Shown in pieces: positions 1 through 21,794 of a stretch of DNA of 64,000 bases. Numbering within the stretch: the stretch's first letter is position 1; each line of letters starts with the position of its first letter. Source of the stretch: an uncultured SAR86 cluster bacterium (GTDB lineage Bacteria; Pseudomonadota; Gammaproteobacteria; Magnimaribacterales; AG-339-G14). Below the pieces are notes generated by a model that saw only the letters and a program-made list of their open reading frames with translations, ran no database searches and was not told the origin of the DNA. Location: the NCBI GenBank assembly GCA_902614235.1, contig CACMKG010000002.1, positions 17,354 through 81,353 on the forward strand, written 5' to 3'. A program made the translations under genes and the position numbers.

Positions 1-166
1 GCAGCTTAGATAAGTTCAATGGCAGATCAAAATGTTTTTGCAAATAAGAAATAGCAGAAATTTTAGTATCGTTTGTGTATTTAATGATCAATTGGTTATG
101 ATCTTTCTCCAATAAAATTTGATTTTCTTTGCAATATTTGTAACTTAAATCGATTTCATTTTTCAT
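1..166 (-). CDS. gspE: Probable T2SS ATPase GspE, 5' fragment running off the window edge
   Basis: ATG at 166 follows the gspD stop. The open frame reads MKNEIDLSYKYCKENQILLEKDH... Identity rests on gspC-D-E gene order; no ATPase motif is visible in the fragment. Confidence 0.6.
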   Translation of the reverse strand, partial: MKNEIDLSYKYCKENQILLEKDHNQLIIKYTNDTKISAISYLQKHFDLPLNLSKL

Positions 167-173
167 CTGATTT

Positions 174-2066
174 TTAATTATTAATTAAGTCTTCTAATAC
201 CTTTAAATCAGGTGTGGGTCGCCCTCTTTTAGTTTTTAAAATTTGTTCAGCTTTTAAAAGGTTGTATTTCTCATTTGTAATCGTTTGCATGTCTGTTACA
301 TCTCGAACAATAGTTGGTTTCAAGAAGACAACTAAATTCTTTTTTGATCTTGAAGTCGTAGTAGATTTAAACAACCTACCTAATAAGGGAATATCTCCTA
401 ATAATGGGACTTTTCTCTCTGATTCCTGCACGTCATCGCTTATCAAACCACCCAAAACAATAATCTCACTATCTTCTACCATCACGGCCGTTTTAATTTC
501 TCTTTTATTTGTAGCTATTTCGGAAGCTCCAATCAACAAAGGTCCAAACACGCTTGATACTTCTTGTTCTATATCTAACCGAATGGAGTTTCCCTCATTA
601 ATTTGTGGTTTAACAAGTAACTTGACGCCAACTTCTTCTCTGCTGACCGTTCTAAAAGGATTTGTATTGTCAGAACCTAAAGATTCTCCAGTTGTGATTG
701 GTATTTCTTGGCCAACTATAATTGAGGATTCTTCGTTATCCATTGTGAGAATAGAAGGAGTTGATAACACATTAGAATCTGTATCTTTTCGAAGAACATT
801 AAGAATTGCAGCAAAACTTTTTCCATCCTTTTTATATTTTCCAACTCCAGCAGCGAATCCATCTAAGGTTAATAGTGATTGTGCTGAAATTGGAATAGAA
901 GATGAACCGGACGTAGTATCGTAAACTTCTCCTCCTACAATCGCAGTTAGATCAGGATTTGGGTTTCCAAATCGTTGAGAAACAATTGGGGTATCAGACC
1001 CATCGCCCGAGAAAAGGATTTGAACACCGAGCTCTTTTGCTAAAGTATCTGAAATTTCTACAATAATAGCCTCCACCAAAACTTGGGCTCTTTTGATATC
1101 TAAGCTTGCAATAACATCTTCAATTGCTGTCATTACTTCAGGGTCGGCAGAGATTACTAGTGAATTGGTACCTTCATGTGCTTCGATGCTAGTTGTTATT
1201 TTACTGGTACTTCTATCTTGTGCTGTTAAATTTTCTGATAAATTCTTTAAAATCTTTTCGAGAGACTTTGCATCGGCATATTTAAGATATTTCACTTTCA
1301 GGGTGCTTGAACCACTTTGCTCGGTATCTAAATTCTGTATGAGATTTTTCATCCTATCCACTATAGGTTCGTCTCCAACCAAAAGGATGCTATTGCTTCG
1401 ATCAATTGAATATGAAGTGAATTGATTGGGATTCATTCCTCCTGAATTATCATTGAAAATTTTATCAATTATCTTTGAGACTTCTTTTGAGGAAGAATAA
1501 TTAAGTTTGATAAACTCATATTTTTCACCAGGTGTTTTGTCAAGTTCATTAATAATGCCTCTTAACTTTTCTACATTTCCAGCTCGGTCTGCAATTATCA
1601 GCGAATTAGTCGGCTCATAAACTGCCAGATGACCCTGCGAAGAAATAATCGGCCTCAATAGTGAAATTAAAGAGTTCACTGAAGCAAATTTAGGTTTAAT
1701 AATATCTGTCACAAAGGAGTCAGCTGGGCTATTTGACCTAGGGAATGTATTAAAGGCTTGCCTTCCGATAATCTCAGGAACTATTTTAGTAGCGTTATCT
1801 TGTTCTACAGCAGCATATCCATGCACAGCTAAAACAGAGAGCATAACTTCATAGGCTTCATCAATGGATAAATCCTCACGAGAAATTATTGTTATTTTTG
1901 CATTTATTCTTGGGTCGACTATAAAAGTCTTACCCGTTAAAGATGAAATATCAGATATAAAAGCTCTGATATCAGCATCACGCATATTAATAGTAACGGC
2001 ATGGCTATATAGAGATAGTATAAGCGTCAGAGTCGCGCAAAATTTTAAGTAATTTCTTAAATACAT
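174..2066 (-). CDS. gspD: Type II secretion secretin GspD
   Basis: Signal peptide; N0 domain INMRDADIRAFI...GKTFIVDPRI; secretin motifs QVLVEAIIVE and KVPLLGDIPLLGRLFKS. Confidence 0.96.
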   Translation of the reverse strand: MYLRNYLKFCATLTLILSLYSHAVTINMRDADIRAFISDISSLTGKTFIVDPRINAKITIISREDLSIDEAYEVMLSVLAVHGYAAVEQDNATKIVPEIIGRQAFNTFPRSNSPADSFVTDIIKPKFASVNSLISLLRPIISSQGHLAVYEPTNSLIIADRAGNVEKLRGIINELDKTPGEKYEFIKLNYSSSKEVSKIIDKIFNDNSGGMNPNQFTSYSIDRSNSILLVGDEPIVDRMKNLIQNLDTEQSGSSTLKVKYLKYADAKSLEKILKNLSENLTAQDRSTSKITTSIEAHEGTNSLVISADPEVMTAIEDVIASLDIKRAQVLVEAIIVEISDTLAKELGVQILFSGDGSDTPIVSQRFGNPNPDLTAIVGGEVYDTTSGSSSIPISAQSLLTLDGFAAGVGKYKKDGKSFAAILNVLRKDTDSNVLSTPSILTMDNEESSIIVGQEIPITTGESLGSDNTNPFRTVSREEVGVKLLVKPQINEGNSIRLDIEQEVSSVFGPLLIGASEIATNKREIKTAVMVEDSEIIVLGGLISDDVQESERKVPLLGDIPLLGRLFKSTTTSRSKKNLVVFLKPTIVRDVTDMQTITNEKYNLLKAEQILKTKRGRPTPDLKVLEDLINN

Positions 2067-2073
2067 ATTTTGT

Positions 2074-2904
2074 TTAATTTACTTTTATACCGATTGAAAT
2101 TGGATTGTTATCTCTCAAAATCGAAAGATTAAGATCCCTGGCTTCACTGAAAAAAGTCTCTAGGTTTGAAAGGTAATTTTCATTTAGATCAGAGACTAGA
2201 GCACCATTTATTGAAACAAGAACATCTCCTGGCATAAGATCTAAGTTAACCAAAAAGTCTTTATTTTCTCCAGGATTGACTTCCAGTCCAGACAAAGTAC
2301 CGTTTGAAAAAATTGGAACAAAAGAAATCGCTTCAAGAATATTTTGATTTGATAACCACTCCGCAGAAATTATATTGTCATTTTTATTTGCAGGATTCTT
2401 TAAAATTTCAGTTTCTATTCCAGAAATTAGGTTCGGTTTATTAAATGAAAGACTCTCTGCAACCCCAGATCTATTGATCGTTACATAATCTTTATGTATC
2501 GACTCTAAAAAAACATTATCTAAGATGCGATCTCCTGTCTGATACTCTTTTTGATCTGATTTACTTAGGCCAATGATTGCAAAATTTTTATCCTCGGAGG
2601 AAGTCACGCCAAATAACTTCAAAGATAATGATGTTTCTGGAGCTTTGATAGCGTTTAAAAGAGCATTGGAATTTTCTTTAGATTCATAATTTGACAAGAA
2701 AGGATTTCGATCTATCTTTTTGATTTGGATCTTTGCGGCGGTGGACTGATTTAGAACGGGTGTGTCAGCAAAGATTATTTCTAAAACTACATTTGAAGTC
2801 TCAAAAGAAAATATTAAAACAACGATAGCAATAGCAATTGTTTTGGCCTTTTTAGAAACGAAATCAGCGATTTCATTGTAAATATTAAAAAAATTTATAT
2901 TCAT
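2074..2904 (-). CDS. gspC: Type II secretion protein GspC (TM, HR and PDZ domains)
   Basis: APETSLSLKLFGV HR motif, C-terminal PDZ-like LMPGDVLVSING, directly upstream of gspD. Confidence 0.88.
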   Translation of the reverse strand: MNINFFNIYNEIADFVSKKAKTIAIAIVVLIFSFETSNVVLEIIFADTPVLNQSTAAKIQIKKIDRNPFLSNYESKENSNALLNAIKAPETSLSLKLFGVTSSEDKNFAIIGLSKSDQKEYQTGDRILDNVFLESIHKDYVTINRSGVAESLSFNKPNLISGIETEILKNPANKNDNIISAEWLSNQNILEAISFVPIFSNGTLSGLEVNPGENKDFLVNLDLMPGDVLVSINGALVSDLNENYLSNLETFFSEARDLNLSILRDNNPISIGIKVN

Positions 2905-2965
2905 AATTTAAATATACTAGTTTGACCTTTAGCGGATATATTATCTACTAAATATGCGATTTTGA

Positions 2966-2983
2966 ATGACAATTAAGTGACAA
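2966..2983 (-). promoter_or_regulatory. Pho-box-like direct repeat between divergent gspC and the prepilin peptidase gene
   Basis: Minus strand TTGTCAC-TTAA-TTGTCAT with 11-bp period, close to the PhoB consensus CTGTCAT-N4-CTGTCAC. Confidence 0.7.
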
Positions 2984-3001: not shown

Positions 3002-3751
3002 ATGGAAATTTTATATGCTTTCTTGCTAGGACTTATATTTGGAAGCTTTCTCAATAGCTTGTCATATCGCATGCCTATTATCCTTAATTATCGTAATGCT
3101 TTGAAGGAGTTTCCAGATATGGGACTTTCTTTTCCCAGGTCGTTTTGTCCAAATTGCAAAACACCTTTATCAGTATTTTCGCTCATACCGGTTTTAAGTT
3201 TTTTTATTCAAATGGGCAAATGTAAATCTTGCAAACAAAGTATTTCAATCAGTTACCCTTTTTTCGAAATTTTGCTTGGAATTTTATTTGCTTTAATTTT
3301 GATCAAAGCAGGCTCGATAAATTATATCTTTCTTTTAGATTGTCTTTTTATTTTTACCTTAATCTTAATAGCTCGCTTGGACGAAATTTTTTTCAAAATT
3401 CCCTTCTCGCTTAATTTAATCGTTTTTTTTAATGGAATTCTTACCAATTTTTATTTCACTTCTTTAGGCCTAGGGTTTGTCTCTTTCTTGATATGCCTTG
3501 CCGTGTTATCTGCTATCAAATTTTTAGCAGACTATATATTGAAGAAAGATTCTTTTGGTTGGGGGGATATAATATTGATATCTAATCTATCTCTGTTTTT
3601 TGGTATCTACAATTTACCCTTTATTTTATTTGTCTCTTCTTTATCAGGAATAATTTGGTATTTTTTTAAAAAAAGAAATGTTTCAGAAAAAACTATTGCT
3701 TTTGGTCCGCACATTACTTTGTCTGGAATCTGGTTGTTATTTATTCTTTAA
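3002..3751 (+). CDS. gspO: Prepilin peptidase, A24 family (GspO/PilD-like)
   Basis: GSFLN...RMP, PRSFCPNC, GKCKSC Zn-binding cysteines, FGWGD catalytic motif, IAFGP. Confidence 0.9.
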   Translation: MEILYAFLLGLIFGSFLNSLSYRMPIILNYRNALKEFPDMGLSFPRSFCPNCKTPLSVFSLIPVLSFFIQMGKCKSCKQSISISYPFFEILLGILFALILIKAGSINYIFLLDCLFIFTLILIARLDEIFFKIPFSLNLIVFFNGILTNFYFTSLGLGFVSFLICLAVLSAIKFLADYILKKDSFGWGDIILISNLSLFFGIYNLPFILFVSSLSGIIWYFFKKRNVSEKTIAFGPHITLSGIWLLFIL

Positions 3752-3758
3752 ATTAATT

Positions 3759-5009
3759 TTATACACCAAAAATTATTCTTAATAAAATATAGAAGAGAAT
3801 TGTAAATGCCGCACCAGTAGGAATAGTTACTAACCAAGAAGCAATTATTCTCCTTATCGAAGCATAATCTAAGTGTTCTGCGCCTTTAGCTAGCCCAACG
3901 CCTATAACTCCACCGACCAGTGTATGTGTAGTTGAAATAGGAAACCCAAGATAAGTCGCAGCAACAACAGTAGACGCTGTAGCCATTTCCGCGGAGAAGC
4001 CAAGACTAGGTGTTAGAGCTGTAATTTTTTTTCCGACTGTTGAGATGACCCTAGAACCTAGAGTTGCTAAACCAAAAACGATCCCAATACCTCCAACAAG
4101 TAAAACCCATGGGCTGATCGAAGATTTAGATCCTATTTCGCCAGTATCCACTACACTTACAACTGCTGCCAAAGGTCCAATTGCATTTGCAACATCATTT
4201 GAACCATGAGCAAAAGCCATAGCGCTAGCAGAAACTATCATCAGCAATCCAAATGCAAATTCAATGCCGCCTTCTCTCATTATTTGATCTTTATTCCTTC
4301 TTAAAAAAAATGCTGTTCCAGTTGCAACAATAATGCTAAAAATTAAAATAAATAAATAAATTTCATTTTCTGAAAATTCTATTCCTACATGTTTAAGACC
4401 TTTCCTTGCTGTGACGAGTGAAATAACGACTGCTACTAGAAAACTATATAATGGAATAAAAGTGATAGCTGCTTTTCCAGGATTGGCTCTATCTAAAATT
4501 AATTTTTTTGCAGATATATAGAGTCCAAAAGCTAAAGTTCCAGAAAATAAAGGGGAAGTTACCCAACTCATTGCTATATTACCAACCTTGCCCCAAGATA
4601 CAGCATCTACTCCCTTAGAAATTAGTACGAAACCAATAATAGCTCCCACTATTGAGTGAGTAGTAGAAACAGGCCAGCCTCTTAAACTCGCGATAAACAA
4701 CCAAGTACCTCCTGCTAAAAGAGCAGATATCATGCCCATTACAAATATATTTACATCATTGGTATATAGATTTGGATCTACGATGCCTTTTCTAATTGTA
4801 GAAGTTACTTCTCCACCTGCTAAAAAAGCTCCTAAAAATTCAAAAATAGCCGCAATTATTACTGCTTGTTTAAGGGTTATAGCTTTGCTTCCTACAGAAG
4901 TCCCCATGGAGTTTGCAACATCGTTAGCACCAATGCCGAAAGCCATAAAAAAACCAATAAATCCTGCAATCAAAAGTATATTAAAAGGATCCAAAAACAA
5001 AGTTTCCAT
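3759..5009 (-). CDS. pit: Inorganic phosphate transporter, PiT family
   Basis: GANDVANSMGT and HGSNDVANAIGP signature repeats; PVSTTH and PISTTH motifs. Confidence 0.96.
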   Translation of the reverse strand: METLFLDPFNILLIAGFIGFFMAFGIGANDVANSMGTSVGSKAITLKQAVIIAAIFEFLGAFLAGGEVTSTIRKGIVDPNLYTNDVNIFVMGMISALLAGGTWLFIASLRGWPVSTTHSIVGAIIGFVLISKGVDAVSWGKVGNIAMSWVTSPLFSGTLAFGLYISAKKLILDRANPGKAAITFIPLYSFLVAVVISLVTARKGLKHVGIEFSENEIYLFILIFSIIVATGTAFFLRRNKDQIMREGGIEFAFGLLMIVSASAMAFAHGSNDVANAIGPLAAVVSVVDTGEIGSKSSISPWVLLVGGIGIVFGLATLGSRVISTVGKKITALTPSLGFSAEMATASTVVAATYLGFPISTTHTLVGGVIGVGLAKGAEHLDYASIRRIIASWLVTIPTGAAFTILFYILLRIIFGV

Positions 5010-5034
5010 ATTGAGAGTCTCTAAATTAAAAATA

Positions 5035-5079
5035 ATTTTACTACAAAATTGTTGAGAAACTGTTGCCTTAATGTGACTT
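5035..5079 (-). promoter_or_regulatory. Putative PhoB-dependent promoter of pit (degenerate boxes)
   Basis: Minus strand AAGTCAC-N4-AGGCAAC-N4-TCTCAAC, then 10 nt, then TAAAAT. Same spacing as the promoters at 9204 and 16455. Confidence 0.5.
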
Positions 5080-5178
5080 AATTTTAGATATAAAAGTAAA
5101 ATTTAGATGAAATAGTGAATAATTCAAATCCTTGCAATTTATGGATAAATTAAAAGACTTAGTTTTTTTCAGAAATAT

Positions 5179-5304
5179 TTATGAAAAATAAAGAACTGCC
5201 ACCAAAACTATCCATAAAGAAATAAAACCAAATATAATCATCTCTTGTAATTGAGACTTTGCAGGTATTAATCTTTGATCTTTAAGAACAGTTTTAGTAT
5301 TCAT
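5179..5304 (-). CDS. Small 41-aa single-pass membrane protein, missing from the ORF track
   Basis: MNTKTVLKDQRLIPAKSQLQEMIIFGFISLWIVLVAVLYFS*; C-terminal hydrophobic helix; Pho-like repeats immediately upstream. Confidence 0.55.
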   Translation of the reverse strand: MNTKTVLKDQRLIPAKSQLQEMIIFGFISLWIVLVAVLYFS

Positions 5305-5311
5305 ATCTTTT

Positions 5312-5340
5312 TTGTAACTTAAATGACACTTTTATGTCAC
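5312..5340. promoter_or_regulatory. Triple 11-bp-period Pho-box-like array
   Basis: Minus strand GTGACAT-AAAA-GTGTCAT-TTAA-GTTACAA, ending 7 nt before the ATG at 5304. Confidence 0.65.
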
Positions 5341-5545
5341 ATAATAGACACAATAGACTAATTTTATATAAAAAACTAGCATTTTTTTTAAAACTATAAA
5401 ATTTAAATATTTTAAAATTTAATTCAATTCCAATTTCAGTTTAGTCCTTAGGCTGATAAGAAATAGATTTATCCAGAACAATAAAAGGCAAAGGTAAGAA
5501 TTAATGGATATGAGTGTTTGAATTATTAGATATAAACTCTATAAG

Positions 5546-6667
5546 TTATCTAGGAACAGTTAAGGCATCAAGTACATCTTTGAAAGAGACAATTTTGAAG
5601 TTTTGTCTTTTAGTTTCATACCCATCTTTATTAAAACCATCTTGTGCAATCATAATACCTTCTGGATACTCATCACTCAGTTTAAAGTTGATTGTTTCTA
5701 TACCGTCAGTATCAGTAACATTATCTATACTTTTTGAAGAGCCTATTCTAAAACTGGTTATATAATCATATGGATAATTCCTATCATACAAATTAAATTT
5801 ACTATCTCCTTGGGAGGATAAAATTAAATAACCAGAATTGTTTGATGTTTTATATAAAGATACACCCTCTGGGTCGCCACCAATTTGACCTTCTCTAGAA
5901 TCGACAATATATGGCTCAGAGAAATCAAAACTATCATCGAGTCTATAAGCTTTTAAAACCCCTCTTACTTCTTCTTCTGATATAAAAAGAGTCCTATTGA
6001 AATCATCATAAACACACCCTTCCGATTCTCCACCATTATTAAAAGTTGTTATAAGATCGAGGCCATTTTCAGTCAGGTTCCATACTTCAACTCGCGGACC
6101 GGTGTCTTCTGTTAAAAAAGCAACTAATCCATACTTTGGATCGATTCCAGCGCATATACCGTATACGATAATATTTGATTTACCTCTAAATGATGGTTTT
6201 GATGGGACTTCCCATAAATTATTTTTAAGTTTTTGTCTTATTTTATTATCTTCAAATACCCATAAATCTACCGATCCTAATGTTCTATTAGACCCAAAAA
6301 GGAAAGTAAAATCAGAGACATTCTCATCGTCTCCAAGATTCATACTTCTTGTATCAACATTATTAATCCTACCAAGATTTGTATAGCTCAACTCTTGTCC
6401 TTGAAGATTGTAACTATAAATTCCGCTTTTTTTATCAGTTCCAAAGATAATTGAATTTGAAGGATTATTTTTATTTACCCATATTGCAGGATCATCAGCT
6501 GCATCTCCCTCAGTTATAACTGGCGGTGTCTCGTAAATTGCCTCAACCTCAACATAATCTGCAAAAGTAAAAGTAGAAAGGAAAAAGGCAAGTATGAAAC
6601 TTGCCTTTTTAGGGAGAATATAATTTTTAGTACTTATAAGTGAAACCAATTGTCGCACTTCTACCAT
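5546..6667 (-). CDS. Beta-propeller phytase (3-phytase, PhyC-type); start codon uncertain
   Basis: DAADDPAIWVN, GTDKKSG, NNVD, ESEGCVYDD, DPEG, SSQGD and TDGIE motifs; signal peptide KKASFILAFFLSTFTFA-D. The track start at 6727 lies deep inside the receptor gene; alternatives include ATG 6667 and TTG 6649. Confidence 0.9.
   Translation of the reverse strand: MVEVRQLVSLISTKNYILPKKASFILAFFLSTFTFADYVEVEAIYETPPVITEGDAADDPAIWVNKNNPSNSIIFGTDKKSGIYSYNLQGQELSYTNLGRINNVDTRSMNLGDDENVSDFTFLFGSNRTLGSVDLWVFEDNKIRQKLKNNLWEVPSKPSFRGKSNIIVYGICAGIDPKYGLVAFLTEDTGPRVEVWNLTENGLDLITTFNNGGESEGCVYDDFNRTLFISEEEVRGVLKAYRLDDSFDFSEPYIVDSREGQIGGDPEGVSLYKTSNNSGYLILSSQGDSKFNLYDRNYPYDYITSFRIGSSKSIDNVTDTDGIETINFKLSDEYPEGIMIAQDGFNKDGYETKRQNFKIVSFKDVLDALTVPR
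6582..6610 (-). terminator. Intrinsic terminator-like hairpin after the TonB receptor, inside the phytase signal-peptide codons
   Basis: Perfect 12-bp inverted repeat AAAAAGGCAAGT-N5-ACTTGCCTTTTT. Confidence 0.7.
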
Positions 6668-9179: not shown

Positions 9180-9203
9180 AGTAATAATCCTTAATTCCAT
9201 ATA

Positions 9204-9237
9204 AATTTACAGGAAGATTGTTACAGAGATGTTACGA
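9204..9237 (-). promoter_or_regulatory. PhoB-activated promoter of the receptor-phytase operon
   Basis: Minus strand TCGTAAC-ATCT-CTGTAAC, then 10 nt, then TAAATT: canonical Pho box to -10 spacing. Confidence 0.8.
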
Positions 9238-13365: not shown

Positions 13366-16300
13366 TTAGTTAAGTTTAATTGATCCAGGTACTGTCCATA
13401 CTTTGTACCAGTCATCAGTAGCTCCACTAACTGCACCTATATGTGTAGTAGTGTCAAAAAATCCATCGGCATTGTATGTTGAAGGAATAGCTGTCACAGT
13501 AGCTGCGGTCTCAGCAGGACCGTTTATAGCTACACCGTTACCGCTGTATACAAGTGCATTGCTACTATTGAGCTCTTTTCCTAAATTATTTACATAATTA
13601 CCACCGCCAGAATTAGCTCCATAGAGATTATTTGATCCTGCCTTAACGATCGTTTCTACATCTGAAGCTGTTTTACCTCCTGCTGTGTCTGAATCTACAG
13701 TGACAAAACTAGGACAATCAAATGCAACGGAATTAAAGGAGAAATTAGGAGTGGTTGCTCCATCAGCAATAGTTTGCGCCGTGTATGTTGTTTCAATGCA
13801 ACCCTTTGTTAAGCCAGAAGCTGCGTTAAGGACTGCAGCAACTCCATTGTAATATTGACCCGATACACCCTCTTTTAACTTGAATACCTCGTCATGGCCT
13901 CTACTTATGAAAGTAAAGTTAGCAACAATGGGGTTTGATCTAGGCTCTGTTAGGTAGACTACTCCAGCTCTAGTATCAGAGTTTGTGTTGTCTGATTCCA
14001 CAATGTGATCACCTGTATCGTTGGACTGTTGAATTAATACGTGTTGAAGTCTTCCTTGATAACCCCAATCAATGTCCAAGTTATCATCACCCGCTCCAGT
14101 ACATATCAAACGTTTCACATCGACTGTTCCACCAAAGAACTCAACGCAATCGTCAGCATTGTTATGCACTTGAACATATTCAACCGAAGTACCGTTTCCA
14201 ACACCACCAAAAGTAATTCCATTTAGCTCATTACCTGGAAATATTTCATATCCTGCATACTGAACTCTTACATATTTGAGTGATCCACTGCTGTCAGCAG
14301 GTATTTCACCACCCATTACATCTCCAGCTGATCCCTCAACCTCTTTTTGACAAGGGACAGCTTTTGCTCCTGCTGTGTATGTACACTTATTAATAGGTGC
14401 TTGACCAAGGATGACTAATCCACCCCAAAGACCTCGTGTTGAGTTAACATCTGCTTGACCAAGAATATCTTGTTTTCCAGTCATTATAATTGGAGCTGAT
14501 TTTGTTCCAACAGCATTAATATCGGACCCTCTCATAACAACTAAATAGTCATTACCTGATTCACCAAAAATTGTAACGCCAGGGTTAACAGTTAGTGTAG
14601 CTGTATCACCGTTTGTAGCAGTGCCATCTGCTCCTACATCAACACCGATTTGAACTTTACCATCAAGCTTATAATAGTTTCCTGCAACTAGAGTTAGGTC
14701 ATCTTTAACAATTCCGCTTAAGTCACAGACTTTTCTACCTTGGAGAATTCCTGATTCAAGGGTTCCAGCTGGACATGCAGGATCGGCAAATAAACCAATT
14801 GTCCAACCTGCAGCCCAGTTATTTTCTACATCAGATCCAGGTGCAAATGCACCAATATAATTTGTAGCAGAGAAGAATGTATCGACTGCATAAGTATAGT
14901 CGGGAGTGTTTGTGTCAGAAACGTCTGTTCCTGCACCACACAATCCTGATTTTGGTGCAGCACCGGCTGCATGAGTTCCAACTTCACACATAGCGTTCTT
15001 TTGTCCTGTGGCGAAAGCGCTAGGAACAGCAGACTCTGCATTACCCAAGAAATATGTATCCACCAAAGTATTGGTTCCAACGGTTAAATTAGTTGATCTT
15101 GAATTAAGTGATGTAGCAAAAGCTGGTTTAGTTACTGAGGTATCATCTCCATACGTTACTAGTGTCGCATCTAACGCTGTAGGTTGTCCTGTCTCAGCTG
15201 AATCAAAAAATATGGAATGATGGGCAATTTTATCTGTTAATGCACCATCTTGGATAGTTTCTGCAAAAGTACCGTCTATGAGATCTTTTGCTGTTTGGTT
15301 TACAACAATACCATTGATATAAATTCCAGATACACCTTCTTTATACTTAAGTGGTTCGTCAACCCCACCACCAATAAAGGTAAAATTAGCAACCATTGGT
15401 TGTGATCTAGGTTCTGTTAGGTAGCCTACTGATGCATCAGAGTTTGTGTTGTCTGATTCCACAATGTGATCACCTGTGCCAACCTTTTGTTTAACAACAA
15501 CAAATTGCATTTTTCCTTGATAACCCCAATCAATGTCAAGATTATCATCGCCTGCATTCGTGCAAACTAAATGTTTGACATTTACAGTTCCACCGAAAAA
15601 CTCTACGCAATCATCTTGGTTGTTATGAACTTGAACGTAATCTACTGAGGTACCAGAACCAACGCCACCAAAAGTAATACCATTTAATTCGTTGCCTGGG
15701 AATATTTCTTTACCAGCATATTCAACTCTTACAAAGTTTAAAACACCAGAGTTATCAGTTGGAGTAGCTCCACCCATAATAGCAGTAGTCGAACCCTCAA
15801 CCACTCTTTCACAATCAGCAGTGTTTAAATTAGCAGCAGCACACTTATTAATTGGTGCTTTTCCTAAAATTACTATTCCTCCCCATAGACCAGATGCAGT
15901 ATCCGGATTAGTTAAAGATCCATCAATTGCAGAAGCTGCAGTAAATCTGATAGGTTGAGATCTTGTTCCATTAGCAATAATTTTTGAACCTCTTTGAACA
16001 ACAAGGTAATCATCAGGTGTTTTTTGAGCAAGCGTTACACCGGCTGGAATCGTTAATGTTGCTGAAACTCCTCCAGCTTTTTGACCGTTTCCGCCCATAT
16101 CCTTTCCAACATCAACCAAACCAGATAAACGATACATTACATCAGTTGTCAAAGTAAGATCTGAAGTAATTGGTCCCGTGATTGCACATAATGTGTTACC
16201 ACCAAGAGTTGCATTATCAGAAATAAACGGAGAAGAAGGACACGTTCCTGTTAATAAGGTGCTAGTAGTAGCTCCAAAATTATCAGTGCCACTTGGGGCT

Positions 16301-16416
16301 GTTAGTGGTGCTAGTTCACCAGGCGATGCAACATTGGTATCACCTGAACCGCCACAAGAAACTACAACGAAGATTGAAAGAACTGACAATAAGTATTTAA
16401 TTGATTTTGGGTTCAT
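13366..16416 (-). CDS. Large outer-membrane lipoprotein with two tandem parallel beta-helix-like domains (ElpS-like, inferred)
   Basis: Lipobox VVSC-GG; AGAGG RBS; duplicated motifs GLWGG(I/L)VILGxAPINKC, GNELNGITFGGVG, DDCVEFFGGTV, GDDNLDIDWGYQG and GDHIVESDN. Confidence 0.85.
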   Translation of the reverse strand: MNPKSIKYLLSVLSIFVVVSCGGSGDTNVASPGELAPLTAPSGTDNFGATTSTLLTGTCPSSPFISDNATLGGNTLCAITGPITSDLTLTTDVMYRLSGLVDVGKDMGGNGQKAGGVSATLTIPAGVTLAQKTPDDYLVVQRGSKIIANGTRSQPIRFTAASAIDGSLTNPDTASGLWGGIVILGKAPINKCAAANLNTADCERVVEGSTTAIMGGATPTDNSGVLNFVRVEYAGKEIFPGNELNGITFGGVGSGTSVDYVQVHNNQDDCVEFFGGTVNVKHLVCTNAGDDNLDIDWGYQGKMQFVVVKQKVGTGDHIVESDNTNSDASVGYLTEPRSQPMVANFTFIGGGVDEPLKYKEGVSGIYINGIVVNQTAKDLIDGTFAETIQDGALTDKIAHHSIFFDSAETGQPTALDATLVTYGDDTSVTKPAFATSLNSRSTNLTVGTNTLVDTYFLGNAESAVPSAFATGQKNAMCEVGTHAAGAAPKSGLCGAGTDVSDTNTPDYTYAVDTFFSATNYIGAFAPGSDVENNWAAGWTIGLFADPACPAGTLESGILQGRKVCDLSGIVKDDLTLVAGNYYKLDGKVQIGVDVGADGTATNGDTATLTVNPGVTIFGESGNDYLVVMRGSDINAVGTKSAPIIMTGKQDILGQADVNSTRGLWGGLVILGQAPINKCTYTAGAKAVPCQKEVEGSAGDVMGGEIPADSSGSLKYVRVQYAGYEIFPGNELNGITFGGVGNGTSVEYVQVHNNADDCVEFFGGTVDVKRLICTGAGDDNLDIDWGYQGRLQHVLIQQSNDTGDHIVESDNTNSDTRAGVVYLTEPRSNPIVANFTFISRGHDEVFKLKEGVSGQYYNGVAAVLNAASGLTKGCIETTYTAQTIADGATTPNFSFNSVAFDCPSFVTVDSDTAGGKTASDVETIVKAGSNNLYGANSGGGNYVNNLGKELNSSNALVYSGNGVAINGPAETAATVTAIPSTYNADGFFDTTTHIGAVSGATDDWYKVWTVPGSIKLN
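13975..15537. repeat. Identical DNA blocks shared by the two lipoprotein domains
   Basis: 42 bp identical at 13975-14016 and 15436-15477; 25 bp identical at 14052-14076 and 15513-15537; both at offset 1461. Confidence 0.9.
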
Positions 16417-16454: not shown

Positions 16455-16499
16455 ACTTTACGCAGAGATAGTTACAGAAATATTACGAAACCGTTACGT
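16455..16499 (-). promoter_or_regulatory. PhoB-activated promoter of the lipoprotein-receptor operon
   Basis: Minus strand ACGTAAC-GGTT-TCGTAAT-ATTT-CTGTAAC, then 10 nt, then TAAAGT. Near-identical architecture to 9204-9237. Confidence 0.82.
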
Positions 16500-16605
16500 C
16501 TTTTTAAAGATAATGAAAATTATTACAAAAAAAAGTCAAAAAAAAATTTTGTTTTGAAATAAGAGATTTAGTTACGGTTTAAAACTTTAACTAAAAAGTT
16601 CTAAT

Positions 16606-16665
16606 TTGACATAAATGTTACATATATGTTACATTTATGTAAATTATGTTACGTTTATGTTACAT
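16606..16665. promoter_or_regulatory. Extended Pho-box-like array (5-6 half-sites) overlapping a sigma70-like promoter
   Basis: TTGACATAAAT GTTACATATAT GTTACATTTAT GTAAATTAT GTTACGTTTAT GTTACAT, with TTGACA at 16606. Confidence 0.75.
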
Positions 16666-16685: not shown

Positions 16686-17111
16686 ATGAAATACTTTAAA
16701 AATATTATTTTTTTATCAATCATTTTAGCTAGTACAACTGTCATGGCTAATAAAGTAATTTTTGAAAGTGCTAAAAAACATTTAAATTTAGACTCAAAAT
16801 ATATAGAGATTGAATATGATTTAAATCTAGTTAAAGACTTTTGTCCAAAACAATCAGTAGGCTGCTATATATCTGCTGACATGGGTAGAATATTTGTAGA
16901 AAATGATTTATCGAAAACGTATCATGATGTTGTGATTTTTGGTCTATATAGCGATTATCTTCAACATTCAAATATTGGATTAATAGATAGTTCTTTGACT
17001 TGTGATTTAAAAGTTAACTATCTAATAGAGGAAAAGCAAAATGATCTCGCAGATCTTTTTTCTAATCATTGTAACGATATTAAACGAAATAAATTCTTGG
17101 CATTTAATTAA
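16686..17111 (+). CDS. Secreted hypothetical protein, 141 aa, four cysteines
   Basis: AGAGGGAG RBS at 16671-16678; signal peptide MKYFKNIIFLSIILASTTVMA; own terminator. Confidence 0.8.
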   Translation: MKYFKNIIFLSIILASTTVMANKVIFESAKKHLNLDSKYIEIEYDLNLVKDFCPKQSVGCYISADMGRIFVENDLSKTYHDVVIFGLYSDYLQHSNIGLIDSSLTCDLKVNYLIEEKQNDLADLFSNHCNDIKRNKFLAFN

Positions 17112-17159: not shown

Positions 17160-17451
17160 CATGAGATCTTTTCAAACTTAGTCCGTTACAACACCGTTGG
17201 AATTTTTTACTTCATCTCATACATGACCATCGGTAAGATCTAATTCTTATTGAACTTAGTAAATTTTAGTCAATCCGTCAAAACCCAAAATTCCTTTATC
17301 TCCTTATCTAGGTGCATTGATAAAATAATTACCAGTGCCATTACCGTCATTAGCAGCCATATTTATTTGGCCATAAACATTTAGAATAGCTTATGAATTA
17401 GTGTTAAGAAGCGCAAATAAAATTGTTTACAATAAAAATTTAATCTTCCAT
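17160..17451 (-). pseudogene. Decayed 5' part of a Gram-negative trimeric porin gene
   Basis: One frame reads KIKFLL*TILFALLNTNS*AILNVYGQINMAANDGNGTGNYFINAPR*GDKGILGFDGLTKIY*VQ*ELDLTDG, matching the porin pattern VYG.IN...NASRLGxKG....GLxAIYQxEyE.D..DG, with many in-frame stops. Confidence 0.75.
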
Positions 17452-17487
17452 AAAAACTTAGCTAGAATAGGTCCTCGCCAAAAAAAC

Positions 17488-18321
17488 ATGATTGAATTTG
17501 ATATACCAAACTACAGGAGAATTGATTCTAAGCTTTATGATAAAGAAAAGAGAAAGCTTTTAATTGAACTCGTCAAACTTCAGAATTGGATCATACAAGA
17601 GAAAAAAAAGATTGCCGTAGTATTTGAAGGAAGGGACACAGCTGGCAAGACTGGGAGTATTTCTGTTTTATCTAAATACTTAATACCAAAACACTGTCGT
17701 CTAGTTAAATTAGGGATTCCTACTGCAAGAGAATCAAAAAACTGGTTTCAAAGATATGAGAAACAGTTACCAGATGTAGGTGAATTAGTTTTTTTTGATC
17801 GATCTTGGTATACCAGAGCTTTAGTTGAATCAACCATGGGCTATTGTACAAAGGGACAATACAAATCTTTTATGAAAAAAGTTGTGCCCTGGGAAAAAAA
17901 ACTTAGAGAAAATGGTACAGAAATACTTAAGTTTTATTTATCCATAGAAAAAGGAACTCAAAAAATGAGAATAGAAAAACGCAAAAATAGTCCTTTGGTA
18001 TATTGGAAAATAAGTGAAAACGATTTAAAAGGTTTAGACAGATGGGATATTTTTACCCTGTATAAAGAGCAAATGTTTAAAAATACTTCCTATTCTGAAG
18101 CACCTTGGATAGTTTTAAATGCAAACGATAAAAAGATAGCGGTGCTGCACGCATTACGCTATATCCTAGGAAGATTTGATTATCCTGATAAAAAATTACC
18201 AAAGCCAAAGGTTTGGACAGAGAATATTAATGATTACTCTCTAAAGATAAATAAAGTTCCTTTTGATAACTTAAGTTATCAGCAATACAAGGTATTAAAA
18301 GTTATGGCAGATGCAGAATAA
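17488..18321 (+). CDS. ppk2: Polyphosphate kinase 2
   Basis: ELVKLQNW, FEGRDTAGK Walker A, WFQRY, FFDRSWY, WKIS, APW. Start moved from GTG 17401 to ATG 17488. Confidence 0.93.
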   Translation: MIEFDIPNYRRIDSKLYDKEKRKLLIELVKLQNWIIQEKKKIAVVFEGRDTAGKTGSISVLSKYLIPKHCRLVKLGIPTARESKNWFQRYEKQLPDVGELVFFDRSWYTRALVESTMGYCTKGQYKSFMKKVVPWEKKLRENGTEILKFYLSIEKGTQKMRIEKRKNSPLVYWKISENDLKGLDRWDIFTLYKEQMFKNTSYSEAPWIVLNANDKKIAVLHALRYILGRFDYPDKKLPKPKVWTENINDYSLKINKVPFDNLSYQQYKVLKVMADAE

Positions 18322-19201
18322 AACTCAACGCTTAGCTTGTATTGATATTGGTTCAAACGCAATTAAATATCGTCAATATCGTATATCAAAACAAAAAAGT
18401 ACAAATTTTACTGAGCTAGATACTTTTAAAAGAATTTCAGTGAGACTTGGAACCGATGCATTTAAATTTAAAAAAATTTCTTCTGAAACTGAACAGAAAT
18501 TATTAAAAAGCATAATGAAACTCAAAGTTAAGGCCGATAAAAAAGATGTAAAAATAATTACTGGGGTAGCTACCTCTGCAATGAGAACAGCTTCAAATGG
18601 ACATAAAATTTGTAAAAAAATAAGAAAAAAAACCGATATAGAAATAAAAATCTTATCCGGAAATGAAGAAGCGCAGCTGCTAAATTTTTTTAATTACAAA
18701 GATTTTAATAAAGAAGAAACCTTGGTCGTGGATATTGGTGGTGGCAGTACCGAGTTGTTCCATCGAGGAAACGGCAAACATCTTGCAAAGTCTTTTCCGC
18801 TTGGTGCAGTGCGAATTTTAGAAGGAAAAGACTCACCCAAGCATTGGAATAATTTAAAAGAATGGCTAACAAAAGTTCCATCTGAAAATATAAGAAATAT
18901 AGTTGGTGTTGGTGGAAACGCTAGACTCATCAATGAAATTATCAACAGACAAGATAGAAAATCATCCTTAGAGGAATTAAAAGTTTTAAAAAAAGAACTA
19001 GAGAACAAGAATTTTGAAGAAAAAGTATCATTTTATTCTCTACCCGAGGATAGAGCCGATATTCTTGAACATGCTATAGCTATTTTTATAGAAATCATTG
19101 GATTTTTTCCTAACTCTTTCTTATTCGATAGTTCTTGGAATATTGCTGACGCAGTGATAGAAAAAGAACTACAGGAAAACAAGAATATTCAAGCAGCTTG
19201 A
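18311..19201 (+). CDS. ppx: Exopolyphosphatase, Ppx/GppA family (short form)
   Basis: IDIGSNAIK, VATSAMR, ILSGNEEA, VDIGGGSTE and DRADI motifs. Confidence 0.92.
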   Translation: MQNKTQRLACIDIGSNAIKYRQYRISKQKSTNFTELDTFKRISVRLGTDAFKFKKISSETEQKLLKSIMKLKVKADKKDVKIITGVATSAMRTASNGHKICKKIRKKTDIEIKILSGNEEAQLLNFFNYKDFNKEETLVVDIGGGSTELFHRGNGKHLAKSFPLGAVRILEGKDSPKHWNNLKEWLTKVPSENIRNIVGVGGNARLINEIINRQDRKSSLEELKVLKKELENKNFEEKVSFYSLPEDRADILEHAIAIFIEIIGFFPNSFLFDSSWNIADAVIEKELQENKNIQAA

Positions 19202-20541
19202 ATTGATTTTTCTTCATCGATTTTTACATCGATAAAGAAAGTTGCACCTTTAGGCTTATTCGATCCAATTCCTAAGGAATACCCCATCATCAAAGCTAAA
19301 TTTTTACTGATCGAAAGGCCTAAACCTGTACCGCCTATTTTTGTCGATCGACCTTTGTCTATTCTGTAAAATCTTTCAAAAATTCTTTCTCTGTATTTTT
19401 TTGGTACGCCTTTACCTTGATCTGATACGGATAGTCTTATAAAACCCTTAGAAGAGTATGATTCTTCTATGTTTATGAGGCTTTTTTTAGGCGAATGTTT
19501 GATAGCATTACTTAAGAAATTTGTCAGGATAATGTTCAAAGCAGCTGCATCAGCCATTACCCTAGTTTGTTTGTTCAAATTATTTTGCACAGTTAATTTT
19601 TTCTCTTCTAAATTGGATTTAAATCCTTCAATTAAGTTATTGACAATTGAAAATGAATCTAAAGACTCAATTGAGATCGGATATTCCCCTGCTTCCATGC
19701 TTGAAATTTTAAGCAAATCATTAACAATTACTTTCATACGTTCTGATTGAGAAGATATTGCTTCCGTGAAGAACTTAGCGTTTTCATCATCTTTAATTAA
19801 TTTATTGTTAATCAAAGTTTCAGCATTAGCTTTGATAACACTAATTGGTGTTCTCAATTCATGAGAGACGTTTCCAATAAAATCTTCTCTCATTTTTTCA
19901 AGGTTTTTAGATTTGGATATGTCACTAAAAACAATCAACAATTCATCTCTGATGTCATCTTTTTTAGCACTTACCAGATAAACAGTCTTTATAGATTTAG
20001 GGCCTGAAATCTCTCTAACCAAGTCTTCTTTAAACCAGGCTTTTTCAATAAATTTTTTTAATTGAGGGTAACTAACTTTTTGAAAGAGCTTATCGCCAAT
20101 TTTTAAGTCAGACCAAAATTCTGAATTAATAGTCTTATTCGCAAACAATACTTGATGGTTTCTATCGACTAAAATAACTCCTTGTCCCATTTTTGATAAC
20201 ACAGAGCTAAATTGTTCAGTTTGTTGAGAGTAATTAACTAGCTCATCTTTAACTTGCCTAGATTCCTTAAGAAGGTTATCAAAAATTTCTTCAGAAGCCA
20301 CTGAAGGATGATCCATATTATTTTTGGCGATAAACTGAGCTGCTGAATTTAATAGTCTTTTAAAATATTGATAAATTAAATAGGTTGCGACAATTGTGAT
20401 AAGCAATAATAAACCGATGCCTACGATTAGGTTTTCATTCAGAGAGATATCCTCTCTATAAAATATAGATGCAACCAAGCTTACTGAAGATACAAGTATT
20501 AATATCAACAGAAACAGTCTCAATTTTACCGAAAATTTCAT
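19189..20541 (-). CDS. phoR: Phosphate regulon sensor histidine kinase
   Basis: Two TM helices, PAS-like region, H-box FIGNVSHELRTP, NAIKHS, FERFYRIDKGRS...GGTGLGL; follows phoB. Confidence 0.9.
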   Translation of the reverse strand: MKFSVKLRLFLLILILVSSVSLVASIFYREDISLNENLIVGIGLLLLITIVATYLIYQYFKRLLNSAAQFIAKNNMDHPSVASEEIFDNLLKESRQVKDELVNYSQQTEQFSSVLSKMGQGVILVDRNHQVLFANKTINSEFWSDLKIGDKLFQKVSYPQLKKFIEKAWFKEDLVREISGPKSIKTVYLVSAKKDDIRDELLIVFSDISKSKNLEKMREDFIGNVSHELRTPISVIKANAETLINNKLIKDDENAKFFTEAISSQSERMKVIVNDLLKISSMEAGEYPISIESLDSFSIVNNLIEGFKSNLEEKKLTVQNNLNKQTRVMADAAALNIILTNFLSNAIKHSPKKSLINIEESYSSKGFIRLSVSDQGKGVPKKYRERIFERFYRIDKGRSTKIGGTGLGLSISKNLALMMGYSLGIGSNKPKGATFFIDVKIDEEKSIQAA

Positions 20542-21240
20542 TTATTCTGATTTATTAAAGAGATATCCTTCTCCTCTGACTGTTTCTATTTTGTCACCGT
20601 ATTTTCCAATTTTTGATCTCAATCTTTTAATATGCGTATCGACAGTTCTGGTTGTGACATCCTGGTCATAGCCCCATACTTTATTTAGTAGATTGTCTCT
20701 AGTTTGAACTTTGTCAGCTTTGGATAAGAGATGTTTGAGAAGTTTGAACTCTTTTGAGGTTAAAGATATTTTTTTATCGAATAAGTAAACTTTATGCTTA
20801 TTGGTATCTATTTTTAGGTTTTCAAAAATAAGCACTTCTTTATCGCTTTCTTCTTTTTCTTTCGAGGATCTTTTAAGCATGCCACTAACTCTAAGCAATA
20901 ACTCTCTGACACTATAAGGCTTAACAACGTAATCATCTGCCCCTACTTCAAAACCTACCACCCTATCTACTTCTTCTCCTTTGGCAGTGACCATAATAAC
21001 CAAGAGATTTTTTAGGTCGTTTTTATTTCTAATGTGTCGACAAATATCTAAACCGCTGGTATCTGGCAGCATTAGATCAAGAATAACTAGAGCTATAGAA
21101 TCATTTTTCTCAAGCACCTTCATGGCCTCTTTGCCATTCAATGCTTTTGAAACTTTGTAGCCTTCACTTTCAAAATTAAAAGAAAGAGTCTGAAGCAAAT
21201 CAGGTTCGTCTTCTACCAATAAAATGTGTTCTTTACTCAT
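20542..21240 (-). CDS. phoB: Phosphate regulon response regulator (OmpR/PhoB family)
   Basis: LVEDE, LDLMLP, TAKGEEVDRVVGFEVGADDYVVKP, TRTVDTHIKRLR; located in a phosphate-gene cluster. Confidence 0.9.
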   Translation of the reverse strand: MSKEHILLVEDEPDLLQTLSFNFESEGYKVSKALNGKEAMKVLEKNDSIALVILDLMLPDTSGLDICRHIRNKNDLKNLLVIMVTAKGEEVDRVVGFEVGADDYVVKPYSVRELLLRVSGMLKRSSKEKEESDKEVLIFENLKIDTNKHKVYLFDKKISLTSKEFKLLKHLLSKADKVQTRDNLLNKVWGYDQDVTTRTVDTHIKRLRSKIGKYGDKIETVRGEGYLFNKSE

Positions 21241-21326
21241 ACTCTAATTTTACTAGAAATAATTTTTTCTTGTTAGAAAAACAATTTAATTTGCAATCTT
21301 ATAAAGCTGTCTTACTAGTTTAACAC

Positions 21327-21794
21327 TCAGGTTAGCTCTTTTGGGCTTTTAATAAAATTAAGCTCTCCAGATAGAGTATCCGGCTCTACTAGATTTATCT
21401 GACAGATTGAGCAAGTTTTTAGATTAACATATTTGGTTTTCAACATCTCTTCAGCGACCTGAGAAATTGTAGGATTGTGTCCAAAAATAACAATATGCTT
21501 CTCACTGTTGTTTTCTAAAATTAAACTTTCATAATCTTGTAAATTTGCATGATAGAGATCATCAACAATATTAAATTTTATTGGGGTCAATACCTTTTCA
21601 AAACATTTCGCCGTTGATAAGGCTCGATTGGCTGGACTAGAAAAAAGAATGGGTCTCTCTTGAGTATTCTCAGAAAACCATTGAGCCATTTTTGGCGCAT
21701 CTCTGTTACCCCTTTCATTTAATGGTCTATCAAAATCGTCTAGAGAAAGATCTGACCAAGAAGATTTGGCATGACGTATCAGGGTCAAAATCAT
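21327..21794 (-). CDS. sixA: Phosphohistidine phosphatase, SixA family
   Basis: RHAKSSW, DFDRPLNERG, SSPANRA and GHNP motifs. Confidence 0.9.
   Translation of the reverse strand: MILTLIRHAKSSWSDLSLDDFDRPLNERGNRDAPKMAQWFSENTQERPILFSSPANRALSTAKCFEKVLTPIKFNIVDDLYHANLQDYESLILENNSEKHIVIFGHNPTISQVAEEMLKTKYVNLKTCSICQINLVEPDTLSGELNFIKSPKELT

Follow-up and report, generated by a model that had tools for sequence, protein, structure and literature searches.

A probable phosphate-starvation island with exchangeable uptake cassettes in a PhoU-less lineage of SAR86

How is the histidine kinase PhoR controlled in a bacterium that keeps phoB and phoR without PhoU or the PstSCAB importer? The question is raised by an island at the left end of a 64-kb stretch of DNA (the window; G000:C2:17354-81353) from an uncultured SAR86 bacterium, in which phoBR and a sixA-like gene lie together with genes for a PiT phosphate transporter, a type II secretion system (T2SS), two TonB-dependent receptors (TBDRs), a phytase, arsenate detoxification and polyphosphate (polyP) turnover. 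Textbooks link high-affinity uptake and phosphate sensing to PstSCAB-PhoU. Few bacteria of the surface ocean are as abundant as SAR86, and phosphate in these waters is often at nanomolar levels. A lineage that has kept PhoBR and has no PhoU would be a natural system for studying PhoR sensing that is free of this relay.

The overall reading that we favour, and consider reasonably probable, is that of a Pho locus with a cassette slot, boxes bound by PhoB, and a PhoU-less, PAS-based sensing that is independent of the transporter. The bacterium would be a streamlined marine gammaproteobacterium and the island its phosphate-starvation (Pho) locus, in which a frame surrounds a slot where phosphorus-acquisition cassettes swap between close relatives. 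These would serve phosphate (either PiT with sm41, a 41-aa open reading frame (ORF), or a porin with PstSCAB), phytate (a phytase and a TBDR) and a polymer, probably anionic (a predicted beta-helix surface lipoprotein and a TBDR), while mip-arsC would handle the arsenate that enters with phosphate. This genome would hold the PiT version, its porin having been lost. PhoB most likely binds tandem, 11-bp-spaced TGTnAC(A) half-sites at five promoters, and the T2SS probably exports the phytase and the lipoprotein. Without PhoU, PitR/DUF47 or NptA-PhoU, PhoR most likely reads phosphorus status through its cytoplasmic PAS domain.

The frame of the island and its cassettes

The assembly comprises 1.09 Mb in 13 contigs (90.04% completeness, GC ~33%). 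The island is an unbroken stretch within a 213-kb contig, and the entire locus, including the T2SS part left of the window, spans ~29 kb. It was compared with 61 sampled genomes from 14 genera and 4 families of the order (37 of the 61 at least 90% complete and several in 1-3 contigs), with 37 genomes in the window's own family. Near-complete relatives are G001 (2 contigs, 96%) and G009 (1 contig, 97%). Gene identities rest on Pfam and NCBIfam profile searches, and synteny and cassettes were mapped by tblastn and Pfam scans of the relatives' loci.

These maps share a conserved frame, with clpA, sixA-phoB-phoR and the opposite-strand ppx-ppk2 on one side and pilD and gspC-N on the other. Within it, sm41-PiT or porin-PstSCAB, phytase-TBDR, lipoprotein-TBDR and mip-arsC behave as swappable cassettes. 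The island of G009 holds all genes of the present one; in G001, which belongs to the same genus, the cassette of receptor 1 and phytase is absent. In G010, G025, G021 and G005, a porin, mip-arsC and pstS (with pstC, pstA and pstB where the locus reaches) replace sm41-PiT, and no PhoU gene follows pstB in these Pst-type loci. G040 has the porin, pstSCAB, DUF47 and PiT, its DUF47 gene lying directly before PiT. Within the family, 7 genomes carry Pst, 23 carry PiT and 7 carry neither, and none of the Pst genomes also has PiT (0/7). That this is a Pho island with swappable cassettes in a PhoU-less lineage can be held with high confidence.

The genes of the island are as follows (bits are profile scores):

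G000:C2:10274-17353: remainder of the T2SS (gspE-F-G-pseudopilins-K-L?-M-N), with T2SSF, G, J, K, M and N downstream of gspE
1..173, minus strand: gspE, 5' part (ORF L037:16152-17351, 5'-open; T2SSE 445.6 bits)
174..2066, minus strand: gspD secretin (TIGR02517 546.6 bits, cut-off 351)
2074..2904, minus strand: gspC (PF11356 60.7 bits)
3002..3751, plus strand: A24 prepilin peptidase of GspO/PilD type (PF06750 93.4 bits, PF01478 31.5 bits)
3759..5009, minus strand: PiT phosphate transporter of the PHO4 family (PHO4 371.7 bits)
5179..5304, minus strand: sm41, with a basic N-terminus and one C-terminal membrane helix
5546..6727, minus strand: beta-propeller phytase (PF02333 183.8 bits, cut-off 21, profile positions 30-357 of 375)
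6627..9200, minus strand: TBDR 1, paired with the phytase (TIGR01782 484 bits)
9369..9788, minus strand: arsenate reductase of the thioredoxin (LMWP) type, arsC (TIGR02691 126.7 bits, cut-off 174; PF01451 62.7 bits)
9785..10429, minus strand: MIP-family channel (PF00230 79.3 bits)
10709..13336, minus strand: TBDR 2, paired with the lipoprotein (Plug domain; TIGR01782 189.8 bits, below cut-off)
13366..16416, minus strand: Lipo1016, a lipoprotein with lipobox VVSC and 2 tandem ~500-aa modules (PF28492)
16686..17111, plus strand: sec141, a 141-aa protein with a signal peptide, its ATG following a GAGGGAG ribosome-binding site
17184..17453, minus strand: porin gene remnant (tblastn with the G005 porin, 58% identity, E 1.5e-24)
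17401..18321, plus strand: PPK2 (PF03976 237.8 bits)
18311..19201, plus strand: short exopolyphosphatase of the Ppx/GppA family (Pfam 99 bits; TIGR03706 153.4 bits, below cut-off)
19189..20541, minus strand: PhoR-like histidine kinase, 450 aa (TIGR02966 243.8 bits over residues 105-437, cut-off 334.2)
20542..21240, minus strand: PhoB-like response regulator of the OmpR family (best model TIGR02154, 238.2 bits, cut-off 296.2)
21327..21794, minus strand: SixA-like protein, His_Phos_1, phosphohistidine-phosphatase fold (TIGR00249 49.5 bits, cut-off 74.5)

The profile searches confirm every gene that an earlier note on this DNA had named from the letters (gspD, gspC, the peptidase, PiT, the phytase, both TBDRs, arsC, MIP, PPK2, PPX, phoBR and sixA). 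That note had also called the module self-contained, which it is not: a PhoD phosphatase is encoded on another contig, and the T2SS extends ~7 kb past the window.

The present cassettes keep a trace of an earlier arrangement. The 270-bp porin remnant corresponds to residues 1-90 of 323 and sits between sec141 and ppk2, the place occupied by intact porins in G005, G010, G016, G021, G025, G027 and G033. Because this remnant stays in place, the PiT-type island here is best read as descended from a porin-bearing form. The annotated GTG start of PPK2 at 17401 falls within the remnant, so the true start is probably near 17488; the PPK2 proteins of relatives align from residue 12 to 30.

Further observations concern the Pst-type loci. 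In G010 there is no gene between pstB and pilD. PstC and PstA of Pst-type relatives (L025:11330-13997, L028:7788-10452) are long forms of 435-458 aa with N-terminal DUF3708 and DUF3333. G005 (L022, G005:C26:1-12000) belongs to the window's genus, yet its Pst-type island is diverged (PhoR 63.5%, PhoB 74% and MIP 62% identity) in comparison with the flanking clpA (89.6%), which suggests that the whole island of G005 was exchanged by recombination.

Variable phosphorus-acquisition islands are known from Prochlorococcus and SAR11, and the present locus shares with them the clustering of phosphorus genes in a variable region, with close relatives differing in what it contains. It differs from them in that a regulator pair and a T2SS frame the slot, for which PiT and Pst are alternatives. 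Most members of the lineage rely on PiT, apparently under Pho control, and PiT and Pst replace one another as cassettes beside the same PhoR. In metagenomes, the choice between the two is a simple genomic marker for telling phosphorus ecotypes apart.

For SAR86, a core Pit and a patchy Pst have been described before, according to the part of the source available to us (PMC11582366): there, pit is core across the order (SAR86/Magnimaribacterales) and Pst is confined to a RedeBAC7D11 subset and an isolate. The same pattern is seen in our counts, with PiT in 46/61 order genomes and PstC over its cut-off in 9/61. The order sampled here also agrees with that account in genome sizes, GC content and its four families. 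The main text of that study, in the portion available, mentions no phoU, phoB, phoR, two-component system or polyphosphate, and describes neither the island with its either/or cassettes nor the boxes and PhoR variants reported here. SAR86 pit transcripts were higher in P-depleted than in P-amended mesocosms, as given in the accessible part of a further study (PMC12981677). In 18 seawater metatranscriptome runs, shares of 0.39-0.48 of the words sampled from positions 3700-13400 of the window are present; these shares carry no weight in the reading given here. Our literature searches found no description of an order-wide absence of PhoU even with Pst, although supplements (PMC11582366 Table S5, PMC13170248 Data S1) may list the genes; nor did they find one of either/or PiT/Pst cassettes under one PhoR, of a TGTnAC box with a predicted one-locus regulon, of three PhoR input architectures in the order, or of sm41.

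Missing PhoU and the input to PhoR

The earlier note saw no Pst or PhoU gene within the island and left their presence elsewhere to a genome-wide search. That search found none of pstSCAB, phoU and DUF47 in the 90%-complete assembly. PhoU had 0 matches in the genome, and 13 of 14 control genomes matched, the Bacillus subtilis control genome being without a PhoU match. PstC and PstA gave no match in the assembly; the best PstB hit reached 124.9 bits against a cut-off of 343.2, and PstS (PBP_like_2) 20.9 bits against 27. DUF47/PitR, NptA, PPK1, PhoX and the EIIA-Ntr protein of the phosphotransferase system (PTS) were not found in the assembly either. PiT is the sole PHO4 match and the only recognisable phosphate importer. 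Pst and PhoU were likewise not found in G001 and G009.

Nor is the absence of PhoU special to the island: 0/61 genomes of the order pass the PhoU cut-off, Pst carriers included. DUF47 occurs in 3/61, all in family f2, and a full-length PhoB-like match at E<=1e-69 in 46/61. These missing genes and the order-wide pattern bear out the suggestion that PhoR needs a control route without Pst or PhoU. Across the class, in a sample of 121 genomes (one per family, at least 90% complete; the tallies include the unpublished G097 and G174, positive for both PhoU and PhoB), PhoU is present in 77/121 and a PhoB-like match (E<=1e-60) in 89/121, and at least 11 other class genomes combine a strong PhoB match (E<=1e-82) with no PhoU. 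PhoB without PhoU is not rare in the class, and is understudied rather than new.

An incomplete assembly might account for all this, with pstSCAB-phoU in the unassembled ~10% and signalling canonical after all. The completeness of 90.04% and the 13 contigs leave room for such a gap, and gaps do occur, as the 7/37 family genomes with neither PiT nor Pst indicate. However, no PhoU passes the cut-off in any of the 61 genomes, the 37 that are at least 90% complete among them, and Pst and PiT are never found together in the family. Moreover, all 9 of the 9 genomes with pstC have it in the island, less than 8 kb from phoB. Since that slot is contiguous here and otherwise filled, it is unlikely that the genes are hidden in the missing 10%, and we regard an artefact of assembly as scarcely credible.

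PhoR itself has helices at ~7-27 and 39-60 separated by a loop of ~10 aa, followed by PAS (~105-210), DHp and CA domains, with no periplasmic domain. Three input architectures occur in the order: a membrane hairpin, a periplasmic sCache-like domain and a soluble form. They are seen in the following variants:

L027:4655-6424, L034:4735-6468, L030:17253-19025, L032:17394-19157 and L028:4438-5514: PhoR variants with three input architectures

The short hairpin form is that of genera g1-g3. Long PhoR proteins (577-590 aa, with a periplasmic domain of ~130 aa) are found in g4 and families f2-f4, and the periplasmic domain of the G014 protein scores 33.3 bits with sCache_like (cut-off 27). PhoR of G040 is soluble and 358 aa long.

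The sequences were compared across transporter types. PhoR of G025 (Pst) is 97.8% identical to that of G033 (PiT), and PhoR of G021 (Pst) 95.6% identical to that of G027 (PiT). The PhoR tree groups by genus, not by transporter. Co-variation of PhoR with transporter type was rejected on the tree and the pairwise identities; only the G005 island is divergent. The regions of PhoR differ in how far g1/g2 and g3 agree: DHp is 77% identical, PAS 59% and CA 52%, against 30% for the membrane part and 29% for the linker. Because nearly the same PhoR stands beside PiT or Pst, has no periplasmic domain, and conserves PAS while the membrane part is not conserved, a cytoplasmic sensing that is independent of the transporter is suggested. 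By exclusion, we judge the chances to be evenly balanced that PhoR takes its input through the cytoplasmic PAS domain, independently of any particular importer.

Several other controllers of PhoR had been proposed: PiT, the small membrane protein, SixA or polyP. PiT is unlikely as an obligatory partner, given PhoR proteins 96-98% identical in Pst- and PiT-type genomes. For SixA or polyP no supporting evidence was found. PTS-Ntr EIIA is the known route from SixA to PhoR, and a SixA route via PTS-Ntr was dropped, as no EIIA-Ntr was found in the assembly. sixA directly adjoins phoB only in genera g1 and g2 (it lies ~3 kb away in G010, G014, G040 and G043). A hybrid kinase on contig C4 could be a SixA substrate. 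The small membrane protein, sm41, travels with PiT and not with PhoR.

sm41 lies between four box half-sites and PiT, and is always found just upstream of PiT. Its length and frame are kept in G001, G009, G027, G016 and G033 (48-95% identity), and the 17 clusters of its relatives all belong to this lineage. Loci in which PiT adjoins ppk2 directly (G014, G043, G042, G038) have no sm41. Prediction of a PiT-sm41 complex gave a median of 0.58 (runs 0.62, 0.58, 0.56) against 0.00 for the best control, with partner pLDDT at least 77 and at least 84% of contacts agreeing between runs. This lends weak support to the pair: in the calibration of the method, the mark was reached by 58/80 solved complexes and 2/110 mismatched pairs, but at values of 0.60 or less only 7/80 solved complexes passed, and both passing mismatches fell there. 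We read sm41 as a probable accessory of PiT rather than as the sensor for PhoR, since the same PhoR occurs in Pst-type genomes that have no sm41.

An alternative is that sensing is coupled to the transporter, the importer (PiT, possibly via sm41) holding PhoR in its phosphatase state and sm41 replacing PitR/PhoU. Such a role would fit the confinement of sm41 to the side of PiT in genera g1-g3, whose PhoR is without the periplasmic sCache, the four Pho-box half-sites that precede it, and the predicted complex. It would also fit the scheme drawn from Staphylococcus aureus and a survey of 926 genomes, which, in the part of the paper available to us, ties each PhoU-type accessory to one importer family (PhoU with Pst, PitR with PitA, a PhoU domain on NptA), finds a PhoU-family accessory in 89% of the 926 genomes, and places a small membrane protein (SCO1846) beside pitA in 25/45 PitR-less PitA genomes (PMC13170248). 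The present genome shares with this scheme PhoPR/PhoBR with a PitA importer and, as in some PitR-less PitA genomes, a small membrane protein near pitA; it differs in that none of the three accessory families described there was found in it. However, the loci that were read contain nearly identical PhoR proteins with Pst and without PiT or sm41. The membrane part is the least conserved region of PhoR, the complex prediction bears on PiT-sm41 and not on PhoR, and a lone membrane helix is easily placed against a membrane protein. We consider coupling of PhoR to the importer unlikely.

Sensing through PAS can be extended to a fuller proposal, which is offered tentatively and which we think somewhat doubtful. 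In the short-PhoR SAR86 genera, sCache would have been lost, no PhoU-family protein would take part, and PAS would read intracellular phosphorus status whichever importer is present, while PhoB would control PiT, with sm41 docking to the transporter and tuning it. If true, this would be a minimal phosphate-sensing circuit in which a starvation-induced PiT is the sole importer at nanomolar phosphate.

Phosphate two-component systems without a PhoU relay are known elsewhere. In B. subtilis, which has no PhoU, the PAS domain of PhoR senses wall-teichoic-acid intermediates, and in Caulobacter PhoU is dispensable for restraining PhoR. The present system resembles these in working without the relay and in having a cytoplasmic PAS as its likely input. 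In contrast to B. subtilis the host is Gram-negative and has no teichoic acids, and in contrast to Caulobacter Pst is also absent. With the enterobacterial Pho regulon, as described in the available part of PMC13577022, which presents a PhoU-PAS model of PhoR control, the island shares an OmpR-type PhoB, a two-helix PhoR with a cytoplasmic PAS and no periplasmic domain, tandem boxes phased at 11 bp with a TGTCA-like core, and a regulon of uptake and scavenging genes. It differs in that its genome is without PhoU and PstSCAB, making a PhoU-PAS-PstB relay impossible, and in its half-site, TGTnAC(A).

Pho-box-like repeats and the predicted regulon

The six places at which Pho-like repeats had been read by eye all carry TGTnAC half-sites at 11-bp spacing. 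The pattern TGTNAC-N5-TGTNAC, with at most one mismatch, has 16 matches in the window, all at or below 20670 and inside the island; the expectation is 1.58 +/- 1.24, and 0/100 shuffles reach 16. Across the genome, 9 or more of the 10 core bases are matched at 27 distinct positions, 12 of them in the island, which makes up 2% of the genome. Among intergenic positions at this level, 10 are in the island and 2 elsewhere. The pattern was built from the island's own sites, which makes these enrichment counts partly circular; independent support comes from the sites of relatives. The repeats of the island are:

2965..2982, minus strand: pair TGTCAC-N5-TGTCAT in the gap between gspC and the prepilin peptidase gene (motif search)
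5052..5086, plus strand: PiT leader with three phased half-sites (TGTTGAG/TGTTGCC/TGTGACT), oriented against the gene
5313..5352, minus strand: four phased half-sites ending 8 nt before the sm41 ATG, kept in G001, G009, G027, G016 and G033
9219..9236, plus strand: pair TGTTAC-N5-TGTTAC upstream of receptor 1 (0 mismatches)
9338..9372, plus strand: second copy of the ~35-bp three-half-site element, just downstream of arsC, also found after arsC in G001
16470..16498, plus strand: three phased half-sites AGTTACA/TATTACG/CGTTACG upstream of Lipo1016 (8 of 10)
16605..16664, plus strand: six TGTTACA-type half-sites directly upstream of sec141 (period 11, one gap of 9)

Boxes accordingly placed are found at five promoters: gspC/pilD, sm41-PiT, receptor 1-phytase, Lipo1016-receptor 2 and sec141. 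The description of the island as wired by PhoB would hold for these five and falls short for mip-arsC, ppk2-ppx and sixA-phoBR, which have none. The motif is kept at orthologous promoters in G001 and G009. The 2965-2982 pair is identical in G001, and a different 10-of-10 site occupies the same place in G009; in G016, G014, G010 and G040 this gap yielded no site of 8 of 10 or better, and the box there is seen in genera g1 and g2 only. The half-sites upstream of Lipo1016 are conserved in G009 and one unit longer in G001. The same phased motif precedes pstS, the porin and mip in the Pst-type relatives G010, G040 and G005, and receptor or lipoprotein genes in other families (G014, G043, G042). The sec141 array is the densest in the genome and overlaps a TTGACA-18-TACATT promoter-like site; the promoter scan found fewer promoter-like sites than shuffled sequence (65 vs 80.5) and was used for this overlapping site alone. 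From these positions we infer that TGTnAC(A) is the Pho box of this order.

PiT is constitutive in E. coli; here it is boxed, and nearly the entire predicted regulon lies in one locus. The T2SS box recalls the Hxc T2SS of Pseudomonas aeruginosa, which secretes a phosphatase under phosphate limitation: in both, a T2SS operon with a Pho-box-like site lies near secreted or surface proteins for phosphorus scavenging. In contrast to Hxc, the T2SS here appears to be the organism's general and only visible one, and its box is restricted to the two genera named above.

The repeats might instead be sites of some other protein, or remains of cassette recombination, in which case the cluster would be a synteny block and not a regulon. 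The half-site is unlike the enterobacterial CTGTCAT and comes close to a palindrome, the arrays lie unusually near start codons, no box precedes phoBR, and the ~35-bp three-half-site element occurs exactly twice, at cassette borders. Against this, 11-bp-spaced tandem direct repeats are a binding signature of the OmpR/PhoB family, and tblastn found no OmpR-type winged-helix protein in the assembly other than PhoB. The motif also precedes pstS and porin genes in relatives, and it is kept at orthologous promoters despite differing surroundings, as before gspC in G009. We therefore consider an origin of the repeats unrelated to PhoB quite improbable.

Binding of PhoB to the five promoters, and sensing through PAS, remain the preferred reading, and several points weigh against it. 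PhoB and PhoR both score too low for the equivalog cut-offs of NCBIfam. Upstream of mip-arsC, phoB and sixA, no site reaches 8 of 10 core bases, and the sole one that does so between sec141 and ppk2 (17184, 8 of 10) falls inside the porin remnant; autoregulation and control of polyP are not supported by the box positions. The PhoD gene lies outside the island with no box of at least 8 of 10 upstream. PiT promoters are box-free in the four long-PhoR genomes read (G014, G043, G042, G038). The near-palindromic TGTnACA leaves the orientation of sites ambiguous. Two arrays, those of sm41 and sec141, end within 8-20 nt of start codons, and the sec141 array overlaps a promoter close to the sigma-70 consensus; this layout would fit repression as well as activation. 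Finally, sensing through PAS is argued by exclusion only, and the swap of transporters leaves room for a partner common to both types.

Other repeats were recorded in passing. The ~35-bp element has exactly two copies in the genome (5052 and 9338), identical at 26/35 bases and both present in G001; they could serve as PhoB sites in reverse orientation or as a roadblock, or could mark a cassette junction. Outside the island, the two intergenic sites precede a Kdo-kinase-like gene and a gene without a Pfam match, with no evident link to phosphorus. The first of these, at G000:C1:324303 (L036 ~1304), is, outside the island, the sole site to match at 10 of 10; it lies 250 bp before the 699-aa Kdo-kinase-like gene and directly follows a 151-aa ORF with a weak Hjc match (PF01870, 20 bits, below cut-off).

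Secreted, surface and neighbouring genes

The T2SS core set (C, D, E, F, G, minor pseudopilins, K, M and the prepilin peptidase) is present by Pfam and NCBIfam; a 378-aa ORF at the position of GspL was without a match in the Pfam search. The phytase ORF overlaps the receptor 1 gene by 100 bp, and because of this overlap its true start is probably downstream of the first ATG; a stretch resembling a signal peptide lies at ~residues 40-56. For receptor 1 itself the likely start is Met8 at 9179, the match in G009 beginning at residue 8. At 6582-6610 of the window (minus strand), just past the receptor 1 stop and within the signal-peptide codons of the phytase (KKASFILAFF), a strong hairpin is followed by a T-run, a structure that might serve to terminate or attenuate transcription between the two genes, or might have arisen by chance.

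Pairs of a beta-propeller phytase and a TonB receptor are known in aquatic bacteria, and the aqpS-arsC pair serves arsenic detoxification in Sinorhizobium. Both pairs recur here in the same order, the difference being that they are cassettes inside a Pho island. The MIP channel is probably one for arsenite or glycerol. The pairing of receptor 2 with the lipoprotein is preserved in G001, G009, G014, G038 and G043.

Lipo1016 (1016 aa) has no match in the local copy of Pfam; its assignment to PF28492 comes from the precomputed annotation of listed relatives. Single-copy PF28492 forms are common in Sphingomonas, Caulobacter and Hyphomonas, all annotated as hypothetical. No PDB match was obtained by sequence or profile, and Foldseek returned nothing at E<=1e-3. 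A model of residues 1-520 (pTM 0.79) is a right-handed parallel beta-helix, and a fold search with it gave Z 15-21.5 over 250-290 aligned residues against tailspike depolymerases, alginate epimerases/lyases, pectate lyases and autotransporter passengers. The best of these matches (Z 21.5) aligns 274 residues with a root-mean-square deviation of 3.5 A; this clear fold came from the VIA search alone, and a shared fold does not give function.

For sec141, the likely start is the ATG at 16686, replacing the start of a 161-aa ORF at 16626, which falls inside the repeat array. The family comprises 72 relatives at 49% identity or more and is known only in this lineage. Two motifs are invariant, CPKQSVGCY and HHDVV.GLYSDY.QH.N.GLID..LTC. 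Neither Pfam nor PDB profiles nor the Atlas gave a match, and the model (mean pLDDT 46) was too poor for a fold search. An Rfam scan of positions 1-24500 found no family at gathering score.

The PhoD-family phosphatase outside the island (G000:C6:23066-24160; L063:1087-2682) is a 531-aa protein with a twin-arginine signal (326.8 bits), and its gene follows a stretch resembling a tRNA gene. On the contig of the island, ~4 kb past the end of the T2SS operon, lies a gene for a calcineurin-like metallophosphoesterase (L037:5661-6371, plus strand, G000:C2).

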